The notes under the pieces: generated by a model
Seen by the model: the letters and a program-made list of their open reading frames with translations, nothing else
Databases searched by the model: none
Told to the model about the DNA's origin: nothing
Source: a virus
IMG/VR virus record: IMGVR_UViG_3300028534_000010
Coordinates: 1 to 34,480 of that record
DNA length: 34,480 bases
Reading direction: 5' to 3' (one strand)
Part shown: piece by piece, positions 1-34,480 of the stretch
Numbering within the stretch: the stretch's first letter is position 1
How the letters are laid out: every line of letters starts with the position of its first letter
Position numbers and translations under genes: made by a program

Positions 1-31
1 AAGCATTCCAATGAAACCAAAGCCAGCACCA
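1..31. repeat. Left copy of an exact 31-bp terminal direct repeat (circular-assembly overlap)
   Basis: Bases 1-31 (aagcattccaatgaaaccaaagccagcacca) are identical to 34450-34480. The rusA-like start codon at 11 recurs at 34460. Confidence 0.95.
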
Positions 32-379
32 CGTCCAAGAGTAACAACAAGAGGAACTTATAATCCTAAAGACTACACAGATTATAAAAATTATATCTCT
101 CTACTTGCAAAAAGAGAGAGACCAAAAAAGATAGATGGTGCAGTAATGCTAATAATAGAGTATAGACTCGGAATGCCAAAAAGCTGGAGCAAAAAGAAAA
201 AAGCCATAATGAATGGGAAATGGCATATTTCAAGACCAGATCTTGACAATCTTGACAAGGGCGTAAAAGATGCACTTACAGGAGTATGCTATAGAGACGA
301 TTCACAAGTTGCCTTAAAGCATACATCAAAAGCATGGGCTAGTTCAGATATGATTAGTATAAGTGTATATGAATTATAA
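11..379 (+). CDS. rusA: RusA-family Holliday junction resolvase
   Basis: 122 aa carrying the RusA signature SRPDLDNLDKGVKDALTGVCYRDDSQV. By circular continuity it follows the HNH-like gene. Confidence 0.85.
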   Translation: MKPKPAPRPRVTTRGTYNPKDYTDYKNYISLLAKRERPKKIDGAVMLIIEYRLGMPKSWSKKKKAIMNGKWHISRPDLDNLDKGVKDALTGVCYRDDSQVALKHTSKAWASSDMISISVYEL

Positions 380-391
380 ACAAAATGTGTA

Positions 392-574
392 ATGAATGAT
401 AACAGCAGACGACATAACAAGAGAGGTAAAAACGCAGAGAAAGAGATATCAGAAATACTAAAAAACCTTACAGAGAAAACAAACGCAACAATAAAAGATA
501 TAAAAATATTAGAAAAAGCACATCTTATAGGAGAGCAAAGAGAGTATGATGTTTTTATTTCCTTTTATCTATAA
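392..574 (+). CDS. Hypothetical small basic protein
   Basis: 60-aa ORF starting 12 nt after the rusA stop. Its 3' end overlaps the convergent ORF 555-827 by 20 nt. No family recognised. Confidence 0.3.
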   Translation: MNDNSRRHNKRGKNAEKEISEILKNLTEKTNATIKDIKILEKAHLIGEQREYDVFISFYL

Positions 575-827
575 TCTCAATGTTCCTAATCCTTGACAAT
601 CTCTTTAGATCGTATTTTAGTGTTTTGCTATTAAACTTTTTGGCAAATTTAAAATCAAATGAAACAGTATATCCTATTTTTAAATTTGCCTCATACCATC
701 TCTTGTTGAACCTCACCCACGCATGGTCTCTCCATCGTTCACCATCAACCACAATATCAAGCAGCAGAAGGTAAGTAACGCCTCCTGCATGGTATGATTT
801 TCTGCCTATCTTTGCTACCGCCTTCAT
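555..827 (-). CDS. Hypothetical protein (last gene of the leftward island)
   Basis: 90 aa. An AGGAG SD lies 5 nt upstream of the ATG and overlaps the stop of the upstream gene, which indicates translational coupling. Confidence 0.6.
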   Translation of the reverse strand: MKAVAKIGRKSYHAGGVTYLLLLDIVVDGERWRDHAWVRFNKRWYEANLKIGYTVSFDFKFAKKFNSKTLKYDLKRLSRIRNIEIIDKRK

Positions 828-835
828 TTCTGCTC

Positions 836-1297
836 CTATTTTATAACTATCTCTTCATATTTAACGTGATCGTTTCCATGGTACAACTCATCATAGATAA
901 CAACTGCCCCGCCTTTGTATGTAATCTCAAGCCATGCGTGACCGTCTCCACCAGCCGTCCCAGCGATTAGCGATATTCCTATTACACTATCATCATCAAA
1001 AAGAATCTCTGCCGCAGTAATTGCGTAATCTTCACAGTCTCCTACATAGTTGAATCCGTATTTTCTCACAGGCTCCCATTTGTCATCTTCTTTGTCGCTC
1101 TTGTATAAAAACATATCTTCGAGCTTCTGAATGCCATCAAGCCCTATCATAGACACATAGCTACTATCATCTCCGCATATCATCATGTCATAGTTTTGGC
1201 ACATATCATAAAACTTTGAAGATGAGCCAAATCCTGTGCTTTCAATACCGCACCCATACAGTAGCAGTGATAAAGCAATAATAATGTTTTTTGTCAT
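836..1297 (-). CDS. Secreted or lipoprotein transglutaminase-like cysteine peptidase (BTLCP/LapG-like)
   Basis: Start chosen at the internal ATG at 1297, which has a GGAGGT SD, not the track start at 1375. The N-terminus MTKNIIIALSLLLYGC is a signal peptide with a lipobox-like LYGC. The BTLCP-type motifs are DDKWEP, GDCEDYAITAAE (Cys), DGHAWLEI (His) and VIYDE (Asp). Confidence 0.65.
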   Translation of the reverse strand: MTKNIIIALSLLLYGCGIESTGFGSSSKFYDMCQNYDMMICGDDSSYVSMIGLDGIQKLEDMFLYKSDKEDDKWEPVRKYGFNYVGDCEDYAITAAEILFDDDSVIGISLIAGTAGGDGHAWLEITYKGGAVVIYDELYHGNDHVKYEEIVIK

Positions 1298-1392
1298 CAC
1301 ATACCTCCAATTGTAATCATTATAGCCAAAACGATAAAATATGGGTAAAAAGCAGACATTGCTATTATGCCCCACACTATTAGCTGCTTCAT
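1297..1392 (-). CDS. Possible 31-aa hydrophobic micro-protein (single TM)
   Basis: Encodes MKQLIVWGIIAMSAFYPYFIVLAIMITIGGM. Its ATG overlaps the upstream stop (ATGA) and its TGA overlaps the peptidase ATG (TGATG). It was below the size cutoff of the ORF track. Confidence 0.3.
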   Translation of the reverse strand: MKQLIVWGIIAMSAFYPYFIVLAIMITIGGM

Positions 1393-1532
1393 TTGCTCTC
1401 CTCTGGTTTGTTTTTTGTTATCTTGCAAATATTTTGATCATCTCTCTTAACTGAAAGTCGTTTTTGTTTATCTACAGGAAGATTATTCAATTTGTAGAAG
1501 AATTGATTAGCTTTTTTTCTCCTGAATTTCAT
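1389..1532 (-). CDS. Possible 47-aa basic micro-protein
   Basis: Encodes MKFRRKKANQFFYKLNNLPVDKQKRL.... Its stop overlaps the start of the next micro-ORF. The SD (AAGGA) is weak and distant. Confidence 0.3.
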   Translation of the reverse strand: MKFRRKKANQFFYKLNNLPVDKQKRLSVKRDDQNICKITKNKPEESK

Positions 1533-1585
1533 ACTTTTGTCTATCCTTTACTCATAAATATCAACTATTAGATCACAATCACTTG

Positions 1586-2074
1586 TTAAGACGTGTGTCG
1601 TTCCGCTTCTTCTATTAATTCGCTTTGCTGTTGTATATATGTTTTCTCATCCTCTACTATTTTTTCTATCTTTCTTATTAATGTTTTTATATTGTTAAAT
1701 ACAAAGCGATTTGTTATTAAATGCTCCCATCCACCTATAAGCTCATTTCTAAAAGTTCCGTTACTGTCCATTTCTTTCCAGTAGGCGTATTCATCTTCCT
1801 CCACAAATTCCTTTACGATCGGCGTTATCTCTCCATCTTTATACACTAGCCATAACTCCTCATCTCCAAAATTTGTATCATAATCAAAAGCTCTTCCTGC
1901 ATAATGCTTGTATGAATCAATAACAAGAATATGATACAGGCGAAAATGACTTTTTTCTGCTAACTTTTCAAATACATTCAGCAACTCAAAAAATTTCTTT
2001 TTTAGCTCTTTTGCTTGCTTTGTTCGCAAGTCTCCTATTTTCCCCATCTCTTCTATTATTGTATTTGTATTCAT
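1586..2074 (-). CDS. Hypothetical protein
   Basis: 162 aa and acidic. An ATGA overlap joins it to the upstream gene at 2071-2074. No family recognised. Confidence 0.65.
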   Translation of the reverse strand: MNTNTIIEEMGKIGDLRTKQAKELKKKFFELLNVFEKLAEKSHFRLYHILVIDSYKHYAGRAFDYDTNFGDEELWLVYKDGEITPIVKEFVEEDEYAYWKEMDSNGTFRNELIGGWEHLITNRFVFNNIKTLIRKIEKIVEDEKTYIQQQSELIEEAERHTS

Positions 2075-2472
2075 TGCTTTCTACCTCCTATTGTATATTT
2101 AACTTCTCTTTCAATCGAAGCATCCATAAGATCCTCAAAATATTTCTCTATAGAAAATATAAATTTTTCTATTTTTTTTATTCCTTTTTCGATGTTTGTT
2201 ACGAACAATTCCTCCGAGTTCATTTCTAGCATAAACTCTTTCTGTATCAAAGGGTTTGATTTTTGAAAAACTGTTACAGTCACATCTTTAGGAAGAGGAC
2301 GCACAGTAAATCCTAGAGCTTTGTTTAGCTGCAAGGAAGCTTCAATAATCCCTCTTTTGCTCCACTCGATTTCTTTACCTGCACATATTGGCGTTATATG
2401 ATCTCCCCCCTTTTCGTATAGAATAAAATCTCCTGCCTGCCTCTCTTTAATGTAAATACTTATCTTTTTCAC
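2071..2472 (-). CDS. Hypothetical protein
   Basis: 133 aa with a GTG start preceded by AAGGAG. No family recognised. Confidence 0.6.
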   Translation of the reverse strand: MKKISIYIKERQAGDFILYEKGGDHITPICAGKEIEWSKRGIIEASLQLNKALGFTVRPLPKDVTVTVFQKSNPLIQKEFMLEMNSEELFVTNIEKGIKKIEKFIFSIEKYFEDLMDASIEREVKYTIGGRKQ

Positions 2473-2562
2473 GCTAGCTCCTTTTCTAATCTGCTAAATA
2501 ATCATCAAGTCTACTATACATTAGAACAATAATAGTCATCAATAATATGCATGATATTTCAA

Positions 2563-3588
2563 TCACAATACTATCCTAAGCCACGATTTAACAAGATTAT
2601 CAATATTTCTATCTTTTGCAATTTCTAGCAGATAATCAACCCGAATCCCACCAACGCTGTTCAAATCAATACCGAGTTGGTATACGGCAGAATTGATTCC
2701 TGGGTCACAAGCTCCTGCATTTTTCAGGTGGTCTATCCCTATGAATCGATATTTAAATCTATCGAATAGCTTGTGATTGCTCATCTTCTTTTTTGCTTCT
2801 GCAATCTTTCTTTTTCTATGTAGCTCTTTGGCTTCTTCAAGTGTTTTGCCGTGCGACTTGTGCCAGATGTAACCATGCTCAAAATACACTTCATAGTTTC
2901 CATATTTCCCTGAGCTTGTTATCCATTTGCATTTATGATCATTTCCTTTCACAGTCAGCACGCCATCAATATTTTCTATTTTCAGCAAATCGTTTAGAGA
3001 TATAACTATCTCTGTGTACCCGTGCGTAGGTTTCCATGTGCAAGATTTTGCGTAACTTTCCCTGTCATCATATTCAGAGAAAAACTTTTTATTTTTTTTG
3101 CTCCTTGAATACACAAAGAGCTTTGTAATAGCCCCCATTGAGTAGTCATTATTTCTATATATTCCAAGAATCATTTCTGCATTCTTTTTCATTTTGATAA
3201 ACTTATCAAAAGAAACACCCCACTCTTTGGAGAATGAGCGAGAATACGGGAGGTTGTCTATAAACTTTTTAAATGAAAGTTTCGTGCCATCATCAACTAT
3301 GCTCTTGTACGCCCAAGCGGATTTAATATTTTCAACAAACATCTTTTTAGATACGCCATTGCAAGTTGAAGAAAATATCTTATATTGAGAATCGAAAAAC
3401 TCTTTTTCTTTTTCTTTTTCAAGTATTTTTCTTATTTTTCTCACACGCTGTTCATGTTTTCTGTCAATCCCATATTGTTGCAGTAGTTCATAATCACACA
3501 GTCTACCACTGTATGATGCTATCGCCTCAAGCTTTTCTCTTAAGCCGCCAGCCTTTTTGATCGCTGCATCAAGTTGTTTCTTGTTCAT
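2563..3588 (-). CDS. Hypothetical protein
   Basis: 341 aa. A GAGGA SD lies 7 nt upstream of the ATG, preceded by a tandem-hairpin leader. No nuclease, NTPase or integrase motifs seen. Confidence 0.7.
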   Translation of the reverse strand: MNKKQLDAAIKKAGGLREKLEAIASYSGRLCDYELLQQYGIDRKHEQRVRKIRKILEKEKEKEFFDSQYKIFSSTCNGVSKKMFVENIKSAWAYKSIVDDGTKLSFKKFIDNLPYSRSFSKEWGVSFDKFIKMKKNAEMILGIYRNNDYSMGAITKLFVYSRSKKNKKFFSEYDDRESYAKSCTWKPTHGYTEIVISLNDLLKIENIDGVLTVKGNDHKCKWITSSGKYGNYEVYFEHGYIWHKSHGKTLEEAKELHRKRKIAEAKKKMSNHKLFDRFKYRFIGIDHLKNAGACDPGINSAVYQLGIDLNSVGGIRVDYLLEIAKDRNIDNLVKSWLRIVL

Positions 3589-4850: not shown

Positions 4851-5006
4851 TATCTATACATATTATATAACAATATTATCACGATGTCAATACAAAATAA
4901 GCAATTCATACAAATTAGGTCAAATTGTCATACATTTCTTTATCCAGTTTTCAATATGAAACATTGAATTTTTACGAAATTAATCAATGTTGTGTTAATA
5001 TTTCGT

Positions 5007-17500: not shown

Positions 17501-18640
17501 AAAGCATACACTACAGAGCTTGTTCAAAAATCTTCGTTCTGGGGTCTGTTTAAATCCTCTTCAATACGCGAAACATTCACAAACCTACCAGATGATGTGA
17601 AAAAGAATCTATCAGACAATTTCGCAGATGGATTCTACTCAATACTCGAAGCTGGGATAGCACTCGGATTTGATGCTGACAAGCTGACAGAGCTACTGCA
17701 AAATGCAGAATTTGATCTCGGCAAAATAGATATGACAGAGCTGTCTCAGGACGAAGTTAATAGCAGGCTACAGGCAGCATATAGTGAAGCGTTTAGCGGT
17801 ATAATTGATGATGTAGATGTATTTGATTCTTTGATGGAGCGGTATTCTATATCAACAGAGGATTATCTTGAGACGCTTACAAGAATCGCTGTTGAATTTG
17901 AGCAGGCAACTTATAGCTTTAGTCTGATCGGGAAGAATCTGATAGACCAATACGCTGCCATAGATATAGTATCAGGAGCAGGCGGGCTAGACTCATTCAA
18001 TGACAGCTTTTCCACATTTGTGGAAAATTTCTATACCGACCAAGAAAAGCTTGACATGTCATTCAAATCTCTCTCCTTGACAATGGGCAATATCGGCGTG
18101 GATATGCCAGACTTCCAAGATGCAGAAGCCGCCAAAGAGTGGTATCGCAATCTGATAGAGGGGTGGGATACGTCCACACAAGCATCAAGTGAGGCTCTTG
18201 GGCAGCTGCTTACTTTGTCAGATGGATTTGCTACGTTCACACAGCAGCTAGATGGTCTATCTGATGTACTAGACGAGACGAAACGCAAATCACTAGACTC
18301 TATTAGATCAATAGCTGATGAATGGCTAGGGAGTCTCAGTTACCTGACAAGGCAACAAAAGGCTGATTATGCAACTGGATATTTTGACCTGATAAGAGAG
18401 TATAATGATCCAGAGACTACTATTGATGCAGCAAGGGCAATGGCAGAGCAGGCACTTAAAACAACTGCAACAAAGGACGAGTATAAGCCATATTTCGACG
18501 CACTCATAAAGGCAAAAGAGGCAGAGGTAGAAGATGCCTCTATGCGTGATCTATTGGAGGAGCTGCAAGCTCTTAGGAAAGAGGTGATCGAAGTGAAAAA
18601 CGCACAAATAGACATTAGCACATACGGAGGTGCTGCATGA
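14573..18640 (+). CDS. Tail tape measure protein
   Basis: 1355 aa, A/Q/K/E-rich and coiled-coil in character, directly after G/GT. Confidence 0.9.
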   Translation: MSRTSKIQSIELKVYANTREVKRMRSEFRELKTEIRTANDVQTRMAAAAIPQMNRYASATARATTQTKNLTNQMVRHIRQVESLFVAGYGLYKLYTATLGVGHEYNKLLENEVAGMKILAVQNLKDTDAMGRKLTLQEKYNIAQAESIKMVDLARKINPETPYNLSDTIKTYKAIFPQLIKYKATLEDIAEITKKMTILGKARGLSMDQFIKTIDTAFSGQMKQSQMQMALGSVGITNATIKEWQKSGTLVQNVLKSLEQVDSKMAGITMTWDTAVSNFVTVWQNLWSIVQKPIFTNIKKDIVSFTSLLSGSEESIAGWISGISTSIWTAVKAFAVYKVGTLSMQRGNMSFAASSLALQRQLYTTGRAAEFTGSMMQVMSFKVKELGAALIAVGRANLPLLALTAVFEGWEYIANRNRDAQERFNTAINKTTEEIKAMTAAQRAVALRDIELGLNREIDKLNHLKHLKDKIIKQDEIRRKKAIMIYGEERVAREFKENTAALTSAQAELDAQQKIVDKLKEQKALWEETDLSIQGATWSAKEMSTELNQSSIYASGISGGANNAKISISSAANEAARLAQNLMNAVAALNGALRGQAVLKGVMNQAQATYEGLAAKMNSANEPLSNMNLSALDMGGVAGDKQRLHYADAIAKTESAKLEIMKLQQQVSLDGIKAATDYQIVQIQNEALERQIAGDKQAQHDAALRTIEVERQALIDKASIDAQYKNSIQYQTDLNMLKQRELQEQQKINKEIAKGGGGSKKASADAKKAAKEAKKEAEKFTGAFTSLIDKMLSGDWSNLFKDFFSSISKTLAKPFIDDISKKMSSVLSSMMSSLGSGGSFVAAIAIQIGSAMLNSLFNSTVSQAEIDAAKGRDDWNDKSLANLGALFESVMYPQLTATNKMSKYLKSIDRNTAAFTRALVGKASTAGIDLTGVNHVDTQTTGFLGFSSKSVSLIGTGLAMDLMTLGDAMDYTTIKAKAYTTELVQKSSFWGLFKSSSIRETFTNLPDDVKKNLSDNFADGFYSILEAGIALGFDADKLTELLQNAEFDLGKIDMTELSQDEVNSRLQAAYSEAFSGIIDDVDVFDSLMERYSISTEDYLETLTRIAVEFEQATYSFSLIGKNLIDQYAAIDIVSGAGGLDSFNDSFSTFVENFYTDQEKLDMSFKSLSLTMGNIGVDMPDFQDAEAAKEWYRNLIEGWDTSTQASSEALGQLLTLSDGFATFTQQLDGLSDVLDETKRKSLDSIRSIADEWLGSLSYLTRQQKADYATGYFDLIREYNDPETTIDAARAMAEQALKTTATKDEYKPYFDALIKAKEAEVEDASMRDLLEELQALRKEVIEVKNAQIDISTYGGAA

Positions 18641-20061
18641 TTAGATTATTATTAACAGCATTTCTATTGATGGGATGCGGAGGAGAAAAAATGGCTACAA
18701 CAGGGCAGGAATATGAGCTTGAACTAATATCTACTAATGTTCCAAACAGGTACCCAACATTTCCAAATGATGGTGTCGTAGAAAAAGGAACACTGATAGA
18801 AGATATCGGTGTATCTGGGTACGTATGGGAGGCACAGGAGACGTTCTATAATAACCCAGATACTTCACTTTACAACAAAACAGTAAACGACTCACACGAA
18901 TCCCCAAAATTTTACTGTAACACGGCAGACAAATTAACATACACTGGTGTAGCAATGAGAGGCGTTTTGCCAGTAGGATACCCTGTCTCTGGAGGTTCTA
19001 TTACAAAGTATATAACCCCAAAAAATGGTGTTATGTTTGGCGGGCTCCTTCCAGATTCTGAGCCGGCTAGCGGCAACATTTATTATAATGACAATTTTTT
19101 GCATAGCGGGAAGCTATGGTACGATGGAGACTTCCATTGGGATCCAAGCGACAGCGAGGTTGTATATACAGAGAATGACTTTGCACTTACTCATCAAGAT
19201 ATGTTTTTCCAGCTACAAAATGCATCATCGGGAGAACCCCGGTACATAGCAACAATCGGCGGGGTCATAACAAAAGATGTAGATGCACTTGCAGCACTGT
19301 CCGCTGACGGCACTCTGTATGATGATGAAAACCATGTATCTGGAATATGGGAAAATAGAAGAGCGTCTGCACCATCATCACTGACAGATACTTTAAATAT
19401 TACTCAATCAGAGCACGATAACGAGATACTAATTTCTGCATCTCCTACCCACAAAATAAACGCAATAGCCGTGTCCAACGTGACAGCATCTTCAATATAT
19501 TGGGAGATATTAGACGACGGAGATGTAATAGACAGCGGTGAAGTAGGTGTAGATTGTTGGCTTGACGCAGACCATTTATTGCCACAAGGCGGTACTACGG
19601 TGCTCATCCCGCTTGGGAGAATGATAAGCACAGATTACGTTATAAATATAACAATAACAAATAATGGAACAGTAAGAGTTGGAAATATTTCAGGATGTAT
19701 TACCGTAGATGATGGTGTTACAGGGTATGACCTGTCTATTTCTACTATCAATTTCAATGACCATACACCTGACCCGTGGGGGAACATAGAGCTTGGTAGA
19801 AAAGCGGTCGTTACAAAACTGGCTTATACTGTCAGGGGTGATGCGAAGCTGCTGTCTCAGTCGCATAGGCGGCACAAGTCTATGGAGGAGAAGATAGTAA
19901 TAGTAGATGCTACAGATATCGCATTAGAGACAAACTGCTATTCCATACAAGAAGCGGTAAAGAGAGGCATAATGACAGTATCATCAACTGCTCTTGTAAT
20001 TAAAAATGGTGTTCCTACTGGGGCGGCTGAGTATAAAGTATCTGTACAGGAAGTGGTATGA
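18637..20061 (+). CDS. Distal tail protein with an N-terminal lipoprotein-like signal; alternative internal start at 18691
   Basis: ATGA overlap with the tape measure stop. The N-terminus MIRLLLTAFLLMGCGG looks like a lipoprotein signal. The second ATG (M19) is preceded by GGAGGAG at 18679-18685. Confidence 0.65.
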   Translation: MIRLLLTAFLLMGCGGEKMATTGQEYELELISTNVPNRYPTFPNDGVVEKGTLIEDIGVSGYVWEAQETFYNNPDTSLYNKTVNDSHESPKFYCNTADKLTYTGVAMRGVLPVGYPVSGGSITKYITPKNGVMFGGLLPDSEPASGNIYYNDNFLHSGKLWYDGDFHWDPSDSEVVYTENDFALTHQDMFFQLQNASSGEPRYIATIGGVITKDVDALAALSADGTLYDDENHVSGIWENRRASAPSSLTDTLNITQSEHDNEILISASPTHKINAIAVSNVTASSIYWEILDDGDVIDSGEVGVDCWLDADHLLPQGGTTVLIPLGRMISTDYVINITITNNGTVRVGNISGCITVDDGVTGYDLSISTINFNDHTPDPWGNIELGRKAVVTKLAYTVRGDAKLLSQSHRRHKSMEEKIVIVDATDIALETNCYSIQEAVKRGIMTVSSTALVIKNGVPTGAAEYKVSVQEVV

Positions 20062-21745: not shown

Positions 21746-22003
21746 ATGACAGACTACACACTTACAGAGAAGGAAGAGACAGTAAAACACGACGGAGGAG
21801 ACGTGCTTCACATAACAAATTGTGCATCGTTCACAAATATTGGGTACACAAGGCTAAAATGGAGCTCTGCACCAATATCTGACTCAAACCTTGGTGCAGA
21901 GTGTGGCACTGGAGACGGAGCTATATTCAGTGCTCCTATAGATATCTATTTCCTAACAGAAAAGCACGATATGAAAATCCAAGCTAGAAGCGAGACATTA
22001 TGA
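21746..22003 (+). CDS. Hypothetical protein
   Basis: 85 aa with an AAGGA SD and an ATGA overlap with the next gene. Confidence 0.55.
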   Translation: MTDYTLTEKEETVKHDGGDVLHITNCASFTNIGYTRLKWSSAPISDSNLGAECGTGDGAIFSAPIDIYFLTEKHDMKIQARSETL

Positions 22004-23187
22004 TAAGCAATGGTCATACAAATTTCGGAGTAGACGGAACAGCAGCTGCCCCAATAAAGAGTTTGGCTGTCTACAATGCACAGAGAAATCCAGAATGGAC
22101 AAAGATTGACGATCTCATAACTCCAGAAGAGTATGCGAATGGAACACAAAAAATGGTAATCCTTGCGAAAGTATCTGCATATGATCGAGTTCGTTTCGAT
22201 ATAAAAGGAGAATGTACTGTTGATTGGGGAGATGGCTCTATTGCTACAGAACCGACAACAGGCATATCTTACTATAAAAATTATGAGCCTGTATATGCAG
22301 ATATGCCACAGCCAGAAATTGATGGATGGTTTAGATATGTAGTCATAACGATTACTGCAAATGCAGGAGAAGATTTTACATATTTCAGAGTTGAAAGGCA
22401 TAACTCTGATATGAACTGGGAAGGTATTTTGGAGGTAATGGCAAATGTACCAAAAATGGAACACTGGAGCCATATCTTCAATTATCATATTGAGCTTCTG
22501 TACTTAAAAGGAGCACATCTAACAAATTACCTTGTATTTCCGTCAAGATTGAAATATTATGATTTTGACATATCTAACAGATCATCCTATAGCTCAATGT
22601 TGTCGTACTGTATATTCCCGCTTGATGTTGAGATAACATTAGATAGTGTGACAAATCTTAGCAATTTAAACAAATATTGCCAAATTGAATCTGCGAAATA
22701 TGTCGGTCAAATACAAAACGACTTTACAGCAAATTACATGTTTGGATTGAGCTACATTGAGGTGTTGCCAAGCTTAGATTGGAGTAGATGTTATGATTTT
22801 AGATATTTCCTGTATTACAATAAATTTGCCAAGATAATGCCGCTGATAGACATGAGCGGGTGTACAACTGAAGGATATGGATATAGATCTTTTTACGGTG
22901 CTCAAGCACTACAGAATTTAAACATAATAAACTGCGAAATCTCGCTGGATTTCACGATAACCAGATGCCTGCCATTGGCAGAGATAATCCGTTTTGGCTT
23001 AAATGGAATTGTAGATAGGTCTGGAGAAGATGATACGAGACAAATCATACTTAGTGCATCTAGGGCTAGACGTGAATTAATAATCATGGACGACAATGAC
23101 AGTACAATAACTGTAGATGGAGTTACATATGATCATGATCAGGTTATAGAGATATTTACAGACAAAAACTGGGATTTAGTATTATAA
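22000..23187 (+). CDS. BspA-like leucine-rich-repeat protein (possible receptor-binding or surface protein)
   Basis: 395 aa. VDWGDGSIA is followed by repeated segments of about 22-26 aa of the type NYMFGLSYIEVLPSLDWSRCYDFRYFLYYNKFAKIMPLIDMSGC. Confidence 0.45.
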   Translation: MISNGHTNFGVDGTAAAPIKSLAVYNAQRNPEWTKIDDLITPEEYANGTQKMVILAKVSAYDRVRFDIKGECTVDWGDGSIATEPTTGISYYKNYEPVYADMPQPEIDGWFRYVVITITANAGEDFTYFRVERHNSDMNWEGILEVMANVPKMEHWSHIFNYHIELLYLKGAHLTNYLVFPSRLKYYDFDISNRSSYSSMLSYCIFPLDVEITLDSVTNLSNLNKYCQIESAKYVGQIQNDFTANYMFGLSYIEVLPSLDWSRCYDFRYFLYYNKFAKIMPLIDMSGCTTEGYGYRSFYGAQALQNLNIINCEISLDFTITRCLPLAEIIRFGLNGIVDRSGEDDTRQIILSASRARRELIIMDDNDSTITVDGVTYDHDQVIEIFTDKNWDLVL

Positions 23188-23196
23188 GGAGAAAAA

Positions 23197-23382
23197 ATGA
23201 CGATAATGACACCGAAAAAGCACAAAGAGGGCGATACAGTGGTAGTGGGCGGAGAAGAACTGACGATAAAAAAAGTACACAAGCGGAAAAAGGGTAAAAA
23301 ATTCTACACGATTGAGGTAGATGATCCGACTCCTGATCCTATGATTGGGCAGATGATGGAGATAGAAGATGACGCAATTTAA
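23197..23382 (+). CDS. Hypothetical 61-aa protein
   Basis: AAGGAG SD. The protein is soluble and charged. Confidence 0.55.
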   Translation: MTIMTPKKHKEGDTVVVGGEELTIKKVHKRKKGKKFYTIEVDDPTPDPMIGQMMEIEDDAI

Positions 23383-23620
23383 AGTCATTGTAGTCTCGAT
23401 AATGATAGGAATAATCGCAATACTCTACACAAGAGTATCAATCCAAAACAATCGCATAGCGGGGCTAGAGAGCAAAATAGACTCGCTAAAAATGGAGATG
23501 CAGCTTGAGTCTATAGGCTCTCATGCAGATGGTGAGATAGACGCTATGATCGATGAGTACGACAGGAGAAGAGATGAAAACAGCTCTGGCAATACTTTTG
23601 ATTTTGACTGGCTGTTCTAG
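23369..23620 (+). CDS. i-spanin (Rz-like)
   Basis: 83 aa with an N-terminal TM (VIVVSIMIGIIAILY) and then a coiled coil. Its 3' end contains the start of a lipoprotein gene in another frame. Confidence 0.7.
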   Translation: MTQFKVIVVSIMIGIIAILYTRVSIQNNRIAGLESKIDSLKMEMQLESIGSHADGEIDAMIDEYDRRRDENSSGNTFDFDWLF

Positions 23621-23855
23621 CATTACACCAAAGATGCACCCAGTCAAACCAAAACTACATGACATTAAAAAGTGTGGCAGGCTAAAATATGAGAGAAAAA
23701 ACGGAAATGTCATACTTGACTACAAGGCAGCGAAGTGTTTGTCAGAGGCACTCACACAGTGCGGGCAGGACAGACGAGTGCTGATATCGGCAAATAAGGC
23801 AAACGTAGAACAAATGGAGCTTATGAATGACAACAGTAGTGAATCAATACGGTAA
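23574..23855 (+). CDS. o-spanin (Rz1-like lipoprotein), overlapped architecture
   Basis: Start set at the internal ATG at 23574, which has a GGAG SD. MKTALAILLILTGCSS carries a canonical lipobox. It overlaps the i-spanin gene by 47 nt. Confidence 0.7.
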   Translation: MKTALAILLILTGCSSITPKMHPVKPKLHDIKKCGRLKYERKNGNVILDYKAAKCLSEALTQCGQDRRVLISANKANVEQMELMNDNSSESIR

Positions 23856-24000
23856 GTACGTTTATGGAGAAGCAAGAGACCATATCGTGTCTGAGTACGA
23901 CAAAGACAGGACAAAAACAGTGTACGATGGTAGAAGAATAAGGTTAGTAGGACACAGTACGGACAGCGACGGAAACAGGATTATAAAGGTAGAGATATGA
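23827..24000 (+). CDS. Hypothetical 57-aa protein
   Basis: Encodes MTTVVNQYGKYVYGEARDHIVSEYDKDRTKTVYDGRRIRLVGHSTDSDGNRIIKVEI. An ATGA overlap joins it to the amidase start. Confidence 0.45.
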   Translation: MTTVVNQYGKYVYGEARDHIVSEYDKDRTKTVYDGRRIRLVGHSTDSDGNRIIKVEI

Positions 24001-24743
24001 AGTTTGCATTAGTTGTTGGGCACAGAAAGAAATCGCAAGGGGCAGTAGGCTCTGATAACTTATCTGAGTATAAATATTACAAAAACATCTTCATACCTGA
24101 CGTAATGAATATGCTGAAAGTAGAGTCTAAAATGTTCACGAGGGGGGACTATGGAACAAGCTATACAGACAGAATCAGAAAGCTTCATAAAAAGATTGAC
24201 GATTGGGGAGCAGACTATGCAATCTCATTTCACTTTGACGCATCAAGCAACCCAAAGGCACAAGGACACACAGTGCTATACGACAGTGCATCAAATAAAA
24301 GCAAAGCTACCGCCTTAGTGTTTGACTCGTTTTTAGATAAATATATGCACAATCGTGACAGAGGATTGCTAGACAGACACAGAGGTAACGGGTCAGCATT
24401 TTTGAGGTACGGAAATAGTACAAACGTGTTGTTGGAGCTGTATTTTGCATCACATCAGCATCTATACGCAAAAGGTACAAAAGGATACGACAATGCAATA
24501 AAAGCAGTTGTAGATGCTATCCACTCACTAGACAATAAAGATGATGTAAGATTTTACTTTGGAAAAAGGTCTCTAAAGCGATTAAACGCAACAGGAAACA
24601 AAGCATATATAGACACAATGAAGCGAGCGATAAAGATATCAAAAGTTGATATTACGATAAAAAAAGATGGAAGTTTTGCCCCATACCCGAAAGGAGCAGA
24701 TTGGGCAGAGGTGAGCCGTGCTGTTATGAAGTCAATCAAATAG
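23997..24743 (+). CDS. Endolysin, N-acetylmuramoyl-L-alanine amidase (Amidase_3-like)
   Basis: The pattern ALVVGH...SEY...ADYAISFHFDAS...GHTVLY...NVLLELYFASH matches the H/E/H zinc amidase pattern. Confidence 0.75.
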   Translation: MKFALVVGHRKKSQGAVGSDNLSEYKYYKNIFIPDVMNMLKVESKMFTRGDYGTSYTDRIRKLHKKIDDWGADYAISFHFDASSNPKAQGHTVLYDSASNKSKATALVFDSFLDKYMHNRDRGLLDRHRGNGSAFLRYGNSTNVLLELYFASHQHLYAKGTKGYDNAIKAVVDAIHSLDNKDDVRFYFGKRSLKRLNATGNKAYIDTMKRAIKISKVDITIKKDGSFAPYPKGADWAEVSRAVMKSIK

Positions 24744-27326: not shown

Positions 27327-27403
27327 TGGTGTGGCAAGGCGGATTTGAACCGCTCCTCCATCCCGTTATGAGCGGGACGCTCTACCAATTAAGCTATTGC
27401 CCC
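27327..27403 (-). tRNA. tRNA with anticodon CAT (Met, or Ile2 if lysidine-modified), encoded CCA
   Basis: The reverse complement is GGGGCAA TA GCTT AATTGGTA GAGC G TCCCG CTCATAA CGGGA TGGAGG AGCGG TTCAAAT CCGCC TTGCCAC A CCA, which folds as a cloverleaf. It has a G2-A71 mismatch, an A49-C65 mismatch and a 6-nt variable region. Confidence 0.75.
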
Positions 27404-34449: not shown

Positions 34450-34480
34450 AAGCATTCCAATGAAACCAAAGCCAGCACCA
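34450..34480. repeat. Right copy of the 31-bp terminal direct repeat
   Basis: Identical to bases 1-31. Confidence 0.95.

Follow-up and report, generated by a model that had tools for sequence, protein, structure and literature searches.

The bacterial transglutaminase-like cysteine proteinases (BTLCPs; PF06035, peptidase C93) include LapG, DvhG and HvyA (PMC13090378, PMC4241560). LapG and DvhG act on giant adhesins, whose periplasmic retention module they cleave (PMC3032545, PMC13090378); the residues flanking the cysteine of LapG adjoin calcium ions (PMC4359373), and the D316A/E318A and C317A mutants of DvhG are inactive (PMC13090378). HvyA, in which the triad is also required, prevents the formation of a capsule, and phage sensitivity is altered as a result (PMC4241560). 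In viruses, BTLCP was the most frequently identified auxiliary gene in single-virus genomes from river water, and its horizontal exchange between viral clusters has been argued (Nishikawa et al. 2024, PMC11283719). Here we describe a gene for a protein of 153 amino acids (aa) in the IMG/VR virus record IMGVR_UViG_3300028534_000010, positions 1 to 34,480 (the whole stretch of 34,480 nucleotides, nt, is called the window below). Its product is very probably an exported enzyme with the BTLCP fold, and we compare it with the described systems, examine its relatives and weigh the roles that it may have in the infected cell.

The BTLCP-like lipoprotein

The gene is read on the minus strand from ATG 1297 to a stop codon at 836, and translation of the open reading frame (ORF) gives a product that begins MTKNIIIALSLLLYGC, followed by GIESTG. 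Its features are listed below.

836..1297 including the stop codon, minus strand: BTLCP-like lipoprotein gene, 153 aa (ORF and translation; PF06035 match of 18 bits; hhalign; AlphaFold).
1250..1297, minus strand: predicted lipoprotein signal peptide, residues 1-16, MTKNIIIALSLLLYGC (LLLYGC), with Gly at +2; Cys16 invariant in 15 relatives.
1028..1042, minus strand: G86-D87-C88-E89-D90, with the predicted catalytic Cys and flanking calcium-type Asp and Glu; aligned to GDCED of LapG (4u65 and 4fgo).
938..940, minus strand: codon of His120, the predicted catalytic His; invariant in 47 of 47 sequences and located in strand 118-127 of the model.
890..892, minus strand: codon of Asp136, the predicted third triad residue; invariant in 15 of 15 sequences and aligned to the Asp of LDN/LDC in PF06035 proteins.
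1304..1308, minus strand: GGAGG Shine-Dalgarno sequence, 6 nt 5' of ATG 1297, by direct reading of the sequence.

A preliminary description of this DNA, made from its letters alone, had reported a 153-aa ORF at 1297 with an LYGC lipobox and four further motifs, all of which we verified on the minus strand: DDKWEP (residues 71-76), GDCEDYA (86-92), DGHAWLEI (118-125) and VIYDE (133-137). The start was placed at ATG 1297, and GTG 1375 was ruled out, because no member of the family is extended at the N-terminus and a Shine-Dalgarno sequence precedes ATG 1297; together with the invariance of the lipobox Cys, this also bears out the lipoprotein signal given in that description.

Single-sequence searches returned little, with only the protein itself found by a word-indexed protein search and only noise by phmmer against the PDB. 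However, 21 proteins were retrieved when phmmer was run exhaustively against 1.84 billion cluster representatives, and about 15 of these were lipoproteins of 147-193 aa with the same layout. In a 15-sequence alignment, in which the relatives were 26-50% identical to the query, the residues invariant besides Met1 were C16, C33, C41, G86, D87, C88, D90, H120 and D136. A PROSITE-type lipobox pattern matched 16 of the 19 family members; in the other three, LNGC or MNGC occupies this alignment position, with Asn at -2. The G, D, C, D and H were invariant in all 47 sequences of a larger alignment, and Glu89 was present in 45 of them. The triad and the lipobox are not chance motifs, because they are invariant in 15 relatives sharing 26-50% identity.

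When a profile of the family was used in place of the single sequence (hmmsearch, 5.8-billion-sequence database), PF06035-annotated proteins were retrieved from E 3.6e-13. Against PDB sequences, the same profile placed the LapG chains 4u65_E (E 0.0035) and 4fgo_A (E 0.047) on top, with GDCED and the His aligned. Alignment of the family with 18 PF06035 proteins by hhalign gave a probability of 99.05% (E 2.1e-18, residues 52-140) and placed Cys88, His120 and Asp136 on the PF06035 triad. In addition, six of the 15 family members gave sub-threshold PF06035 matches on their own, and the related phage lipoproteins P0028 and P0030, which have the same N-terminal layout, passed the Pfam cutoff (34.3 and 28.9 bits). 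For the 153-aa lipoprotein, PHROGs gave a weak 'peptidase' match only (E 0.018) and PADLOC gave none. On these profile comparisons we place the protein within the BTLCP superfamily, as a divergent member; the family call of the preliminary description is thereby upheld, and its Cys-His-Asp triad is kept on alignment, with C88, H120 and D136 both invariant and on the PF06035 triad.

AlphaFold gave an unusable model from the single sequence (predicted local distance difference test, pLDDT, 41), whereas the model made with the 47-sequence alignment had a pLDDT of 88.2 and a predicted template modelling score (pTM) of 0.80. In the latter model, a helix (88-99) begins at Cys88, His120 lies in a strand (118-127) and Asp136 follows another strand (132-135), so that the predicted order of elements is that expected of a papain/transglutaminase core. 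A Foldseek search of BFVD, which holds predicted viral structures, produced four matches below 1e-3; among the named neighbours were a 'Transglutaminase' of Caulobacter phage CcrPW (E 4e-3) and, from uncultured phages, a 'Lipoprotein' (E 5e-3) and a 'COG3672 predicted transglutaminase-like cysteine proteinase' (E 0.16). Support for the predicted fold comes only from the sequence profile and from the order of secondary-structure elements in the model.

Compared with LapG (Pseudomonas fluorescens and Legionella pneumophila; PDB 4U65 and 4FGO) and DvhG, the phage protein has the Cys-His-Asp triad in the same order and spacing, the GDCED with its calcium-binding Asp/Glu (Asp87 and Glu89 being the equivalents of D316 and E318 of DvhG), a Y..D....D.W motif N-terminal to the Cys and, by prediction, periplasmic export. 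DvhG is also membrane-tethered, as the phage protein would be by its predicted lipid anchor. However, the phage protein has a lipobox, whereas LapG has a cleaved Sec signal and DvhG a membrane helix; it has 137 mature residues compared with about 170 or more, its N-terminal lobe being shortened; it scores below the Pfam cutoff; and it is encoded by a phage, outside any LapD/LapA/type I secretion neighbourhood. HvyA of Caulobacter crescentus, a BTLCP that works in the periplasm as the phage protein is predicted to do, needs its triad and has a role connected with phage sensitivity, but it is a soluble cellular protein of 272 aa that lacks a lipobox, is cell-cycle-regulated and is encoded in a capsule locus. 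The viral BTLCP auxiliary genes (PMC11283719) and the PF06035 domains of IMG/VR resemble our gene in being phage-borne and in their horizontal spread between unrelated phages, but they pass Pfam thresholds, and those that we retrieved mostly encode tail-like proteins of 800-1200 aa or signal-less proteins of about 120-135 aa.

The phage genome and the neighbourhoods of related genes

The window is a complete circular phage genome of about 34.45 kilobases (kb), in which the last 31 nt repeat the first 31 nt (34450..34480 and 1..31), and a second assembly reads through the terminal junction; the 153-aa protein is therefore encoded by a phage, as had been supposed. The genome carries genes for RusA, the small and large terminase subunits, portal, protease, major capsid protein and a tape measure of 1355 aa, together with an amidase_3 endolysin, RecE-like and Erf-like recombination proteins, an O-like initiator and SSB. 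The RusA gene (11..379) begins before the end of the window and wraps around. No integrase was seen among the scanned window ORFs, and no holin was identified. The nearest relatives of the large terminase are less than 33% identical and come mostly from phages of Gram-negative bacteria. Four features bear on the host type and on the setting of the gene.

23369..23620, plus strand: i-spanin, with an N-terminal membrane helix and a coiled coil (translation).
About 23574..23855 (within 23553..23855), plus strand: o-spanin lipoprotein, MKTALAILLILTGC..., overlapping the i-spanin (translation and lipobox scan).
23997..24743, plus strand: amidase_3 endolysin, downstream of the spanin pair.
4862..4890, minus strand: promoter-like site heading the leftward block, a perfect TTGACA-17-TATAAT; the genome contains no other exact match, and 0.01 would be expected by chance.

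Because an overlapping i-spanin/o-spanin pair lies beside an amidase endolysin, the host is likely to be Gram-negative, and the enzyme should therefore face the periplasm. The 153-aa lipoprotein itself was also considered as an o-spanin and rejected, since the spanin pair (23369..23855) is 22 kb away and the gene carries an enzyme domain. Between the spanins and the endolysin lies an ORF of 57 aa (23827..24000), which is common to the IMG/VR contig L002 (7845..8018, minus strand) and is located there, too, 5' of an endolysin-like gene.

Only one gene follows the BTLCP-like gene in the leftward block to which both belong (about 4637 down to 555). The block sits between RusA and the terminase genes, runs opposite to the late-gene direction and has a GC content of 35.5%, compared with 42.1% in the structural genes. 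In appearance it is typical of accessory, moron-type regions. The promoter-like site points leftward into the block and lies within a 1.2-kb divergent region between the leftward block and the packaging genes.

The gene travels alone. When 18 window proteins were compared with all fetched loci, only the lipoprotein was common to L001, L045 and others, and L002 shared one further window protein, from the tail region (22000..23187). The closest relative, 42% identical, is encoded on L002. There its gene comes after those of a membrane peptide of 38 aa and a 68-aa product, with an ATGA overlap; an endolysin-like gene is about 650 nt away, and a tail-spike-like gene is also close by. Located 5' of the two closest homologues (L002 5683..6007 and L045 2..298) is a membrane segment, after which comes the conserved motif YTGCVS.TPE..YIGAPSGCVGEVR; this stretch is divided between two ORFs in L002 and contained in one ORF in L045.

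Other relatives occupy different settings. P0022 and P0023 are encoded among tail-fibre-like genes with collagen-like repeats, and P0025 in a run of small early-type ORFs. In L050 (1562..2978), the BTLCP P0028 stands between a gene transfer agent (GTA)-type holin and an M15 endolysin, and stop and start codons overlap there; in L051 (216..2986), a tail-fibre-like gene is followed by the BTLCP P0030, two multi-pass, holin-like membrane proteins, an M15 endolysin, an i-spanin and an o-spanin. These arrangements suggest a lysis-linked role for the L050/L051 clade of PF06035-passing lipoprotein BTLCPs. A remote cellular lipoprotein relative, P0039 (E 1.5e-5, 17% identity), adjoins genes for a glycosyltransferase and a polysaccharide flippase; its location in a bacterial contig (L047/L048, 8001..8585) is reminiscent of that of HvyA in the Caulobacter capsule locus.

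In all, 22 IMG/VR contigs encode BTLCP domains, mostly of two other types. The first consists of proteins of 800-1200 aa with a 90-bit PF06035 domain, which are tail-like by size and layout (L003 5206..7722, L009 2602..6240 and L017 5041..7479, with similar proteins in L007, L008, L016 and L023) and imply a version of the enzyme that may be delivered by the virion. The second, of about 120-135 aa and without an N-terminal signal, is also found in cultured phages of Vibrio, Aeromonas and Roseobacter, where it is annotated as hypothetical. Among 50,697 cultured phages, neither tblastn of the protein nor megablast of 8 kb gave a match. The window's subfamily was not found in the genome collection, in which the exact peptides matched nothing and a three-sequence profile retrieved distant cellular BTLCPs only, mostly from Rhizobium. 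A metagenome scan found only the L002 contig again, and an IMG/VR scan for the sister subfamily found nothing.

The preliminary description had not been aware of the proposed role as a described phage function. Phage BTLCP genes have in fact been reported (PMC11283719) and are present in the 22 IMG/VR contigs; what stands is that our literature searches found no functional study of such phage-borne genes. The novelty is modest and consists of a rare, apparently mainly phage-borne lipoprotein subfamily that has a shortened N-terminal lobe and is missed by Pfam-based annotation, and of the occurrence of related lipoprotein BTLCPs in lysis cassettes and beside tail fibres.

Possible roles in the infected cell

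We consider that the gene product is probably a lipid-anchored, periplasm-facing envelope protease of the infected Gram-negative cell. The enzyme would be made in the infected cell, exported by the Sec/Lol lipoprotein route and tethered by its lipid to the periplasm-facing side of a membrane, which, given the Gly at +2, would be the outer membrane under the sorting rule of Escherichia coli. The conserved pair Cys33/Cys41 would probably form a disulfide, as expected of an exported protein. Cys88, His120 and Asp136 would constitute the catalytic triad, with Asp87 and Glu89 matching the calcium site of LapG-type enzymes, and the enzyme would most likely, with calcium, make a single specific cut in a host envelope protein having a periplasmic segment. 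Candidate targets are an adhesin anchor (as for LapG), a component of capsule export (as for HvyA) and the phage's own receptor, and the cut would alter the surface of the infected cell. The ORF, the conserved lipobox and triad, the profile-based family membership, the phage context and the spanins are observed; we infer the export, the lipidation, the calcium dependence, the protease rather than transglutaminase chemistry, the expression from the promoter-like site and the target. An accessory role in surface remodelling is favoured over a role in lysis, because the gene is far from the tail-fibre and lysis modules and has its own promoter-like site.

Several points weigh against this interpretation. 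With the single protein, PF06035 scored 18 bits (E 0.0027), below the gathering cutoff of 27 bits. Foldseek found no match in the PDB at E <= 1e-3, and its 50 best matches did not include LapG, so the similarity to LapG or BTLCP structures that the preliminary description had proposed as a check was not recovered; the best PDB matches, of low template modelling (TM) score, were TglA, CPR-C4 protease, arylamine N-acetyltransferases and vasohibins, all loosely related Cys-His-Asp enzymes. The mature protein has 137 aa, compared with 193-197 aa in the solved LapG chains, and much of the N-terminal lobe is absent; with this lobe shortened, substrate docking may differ from that of LapG. Besides proteolysis, enzymes with the transglutaminase fold can carry out cross-linking, deamidation or the cleavage of isopeptide bonds, and the related lipoprotein BTLCPs in lysis cassettes point to another role for at least some of these proteins. 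The leftward block would be expressed from a site that is called as a promoter by its match to the consensus only.

As to the target, the protein could mimic LapG by cutting the N-terminal retention module of a giant, type-I-secreted LapA-type adhesin at [T/A/P]AAG, free of control by LapD and cyclic di-GMP, with the result that the adhesin is shed. If true, this would lead to dispersal, superinfection exclusion or the loss of fewer progeny on debris. Among BTLCPs, a substrate has been defined only for LapG and DvhG, and the PDB sequences that match best are LapG chains. The D-C-E calcium motif and, N-terminal to the Cys, the Y..D....D.W motif are common to the phage protein and LapG, and a membrane-tethered BTLCP that cleaves an adhesin does exist in DvhG (PMC13090378). 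However, the 34.5-kb phage genome contains no LapD, LapA or type I secretion gene, the N-terminal lobe is truncated, Foldseek did not recover LapG from the PDB, and heterologous BTLCPs are often not interchangeable, the role of HvyA being a different one (PMC4241560). The sole [T/A/P]AAG among the phage proteins is in a small membrane protein and carries little information. We consider a LapG mimic in the strict sense unlikely. The protein has no observed connection with LapD, a type I secretion system or an adhesin of the LapA type, and the adhesin stripping put forward in the preliminary description becomes one option among several, because the BTLCP family also includes the capsule-blocking HvyA (PMC4241560).

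A receptor-directed exclusion lipoprotein comparable to Llp of T5 or Cor of phi80/N15/T1 is an equally doubtful possibility. Such a protein would act at the outer membrane on the phage's receptor, by cutting rather than plugging it, and would block superinfection and spare the progeny from adsorption to debris. Llp and Cor are small phage outer-membrane lipoproteins and act as non-enzymatic receptor blockers. All members of our family are lipoproteins, and the sister lipoproteins P0022, P0023 and P0030 directly adjoin tail-fibre-like genes with collagen-like repeats, a position beside tail-fibre genes being the usual place of llp/cor-type genes. Adjacency is weak evidence, however, and the window gene itself is not near the tail fibre genes; nor did PHROGs reveal any sequence or domain relation between the phage BTLCP and the Llp or Cor families.

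Control of capsule or exopolysaccharide, in the manner of Caulobacter HvyA, would involve the inactivation of a periplasmic step of polysaccharide export, after which capsule making stops. HvyA is a periplasmic BTLCP that needs its triad to block capsulation and alters phage sensitivity (PMC4241560); Caulobacter phages encode a similar fold, as seen in the Foldseek search of BFVD, and the distant lipoprotein relative P0039 adjoins glycosyltransferase and flippase genes in its bacterial contig. Nevertheless, the substrate of HvyA itself is not known, P0039 is only a remote relative at the E value and identity given above, and the phage has no polysaccharide genes. We give this explanation little weight.

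A similarly small chance is allowed for a lysis helper that cuts a tether between the outer membrane and the cell wall, or a peptide bond of the wall, to aid progeny release. PF06035-passing lipoproteins with the same N-terminal layout are located inside the lysis cassettes of L050 and L051, the closest homologue (on L002) is about 650 nt from an endolysin-like gene, and PeiW and PeiP, transglutaminase-fold phage pseudomurein endoisopeptidases, are cited in the reference list of PMC10318531. The window gene, however, lies some 22 kb away from the lysis cassette, is encoded on the opposite strand and follows a sigma-70-type promoter-like site, and the phage already possesses an endolysin and both spanins. 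The last alternative, a cytoplasmic 179-aa product made from GTG 1375 without export, or a decayed and inactive remnant, is hardly credible: a longer ORF from GTG 1375 is mechanically present, but all relatives begin with a lipoprotein signal and none is N-terminally extended, GGAGG stands before ATG 1297, the extension would overlap the upstream micro-ORF orf31, and the triad is invariant across the relatives.

If the favoured envelope protease is set beside its relatives, phage lipoprotein BTLCPs might, more generally, be a tool with which phages of Gram-negative bacteria edit the host envelope from the periplasmic side. The window's enzyme would then be an unregulated LapG-like scissor that frees an adhesin or the phage's own receptor, resulting in enzymatic superinfection exclusion or forced detachment, and those relatives that are encoded in lysis cassettes would sever tethers of the outer membrane when the cell lyses; we offer this as a tentative scheme that is more likely wrong than right. 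BTLCP proteases govern attachment (LapG and DvhG) or capsule (HvyA), and both traits decide phage access and life in biofilms. Phage-borne BTLCPs are common in viromes, and the small lipid-anchored subfamily is a compact candidate for asking what phages do with the enzyme. An answer concerning adhesins, receptors or capsule machinery cut by phages would inform the study of superinfection exclusion and biofilm dispersal and might help in devising tools for biofilm removal.

Micro-ORFs and other minor features

Two micro-ORFs precede the lipoprotein gene, and a further small gene follows it.

1297..1392, minus strand: orf31, a hydrophobic peptide of 31 aa, whose stop overlaps ATG 1297 (TGATG); called as a gene in an independent assembly.
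1389..1532, minus strand: orf47, a basic peptide of 47 aa with a net charge of +10, whose stop overlaps the orf31 start (ATGA).
555..827, minus strand: orf90, 90 aa, the last gene of the leftward block, with its own AGGAG and 8 intervening nt after the BTLCP stop.

The layout described earlier, in which a 47-aa basic and a 31-aa hydrophobic micro-ORF are chained by ATGA and TGATG, was confirmed. The peptide encoded by orf47 contains 15 Lys/Arg compared with five Asp/Glu, and that encoded by orf31 has one hydrophobic stretch with a mean Kyte-Doolittle hydropathy of 2.0. Each micro-ORF is preceded by a purine-rich ribosome-binding site, and both were called by an independent gene caller. In 5000 shuffles of the 300-nt micro-ORF stretch, two ATG ORFs of at least 30 aa occurred in 1% and an ORF coverage of at least 75% in 0.2%. 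No homologue of orf47 was found among 5.8 billion proteins, and the only echo of the micro-ORFs among the relatives was the small membrane peptide upstream of the L002 homologue, which is without detectable homology. The one other contig with this region that was read shows no difference in the compared overlap of about 3.3 kb (window 1..3298) and so offers no substitutions for a ratio of nonsynonymous to synonymous changes (dN/dS) in the micro-ORFs. Their gene-like layout suggests that the two micro-ORFs may be translated, with no conservation detected beyond this phage, and translational coupling to the lipoprotein gene is plausible. A spanin-like pair made up of orf31 and the lipoprotein was ruled out, orf31 being too short to span the periplasm.

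No family match was found for orf90 in scans of Pfam, PHROGs, NCBIfam and PADLOC; the other proteins of the leftward block matched nothing informative, with NCBIfam and PADLOC empty for the block, and an IMG/VR scan with a neighbouring protein of 162 aa found nothing. Elsewhere in the genome, a protein of 474 aa encoded right after the tape measure (18637..20061, plus strand) has a weak PHROG match of unknown function only and starts with MIRLLLTAFLLMGC, a lipobox, which is unexpected for a tail protein. A single tRNA gene, tRNA-Met (CAT), is located at 27327..27403 on the minus strand, between the recombination genes and the replication module.

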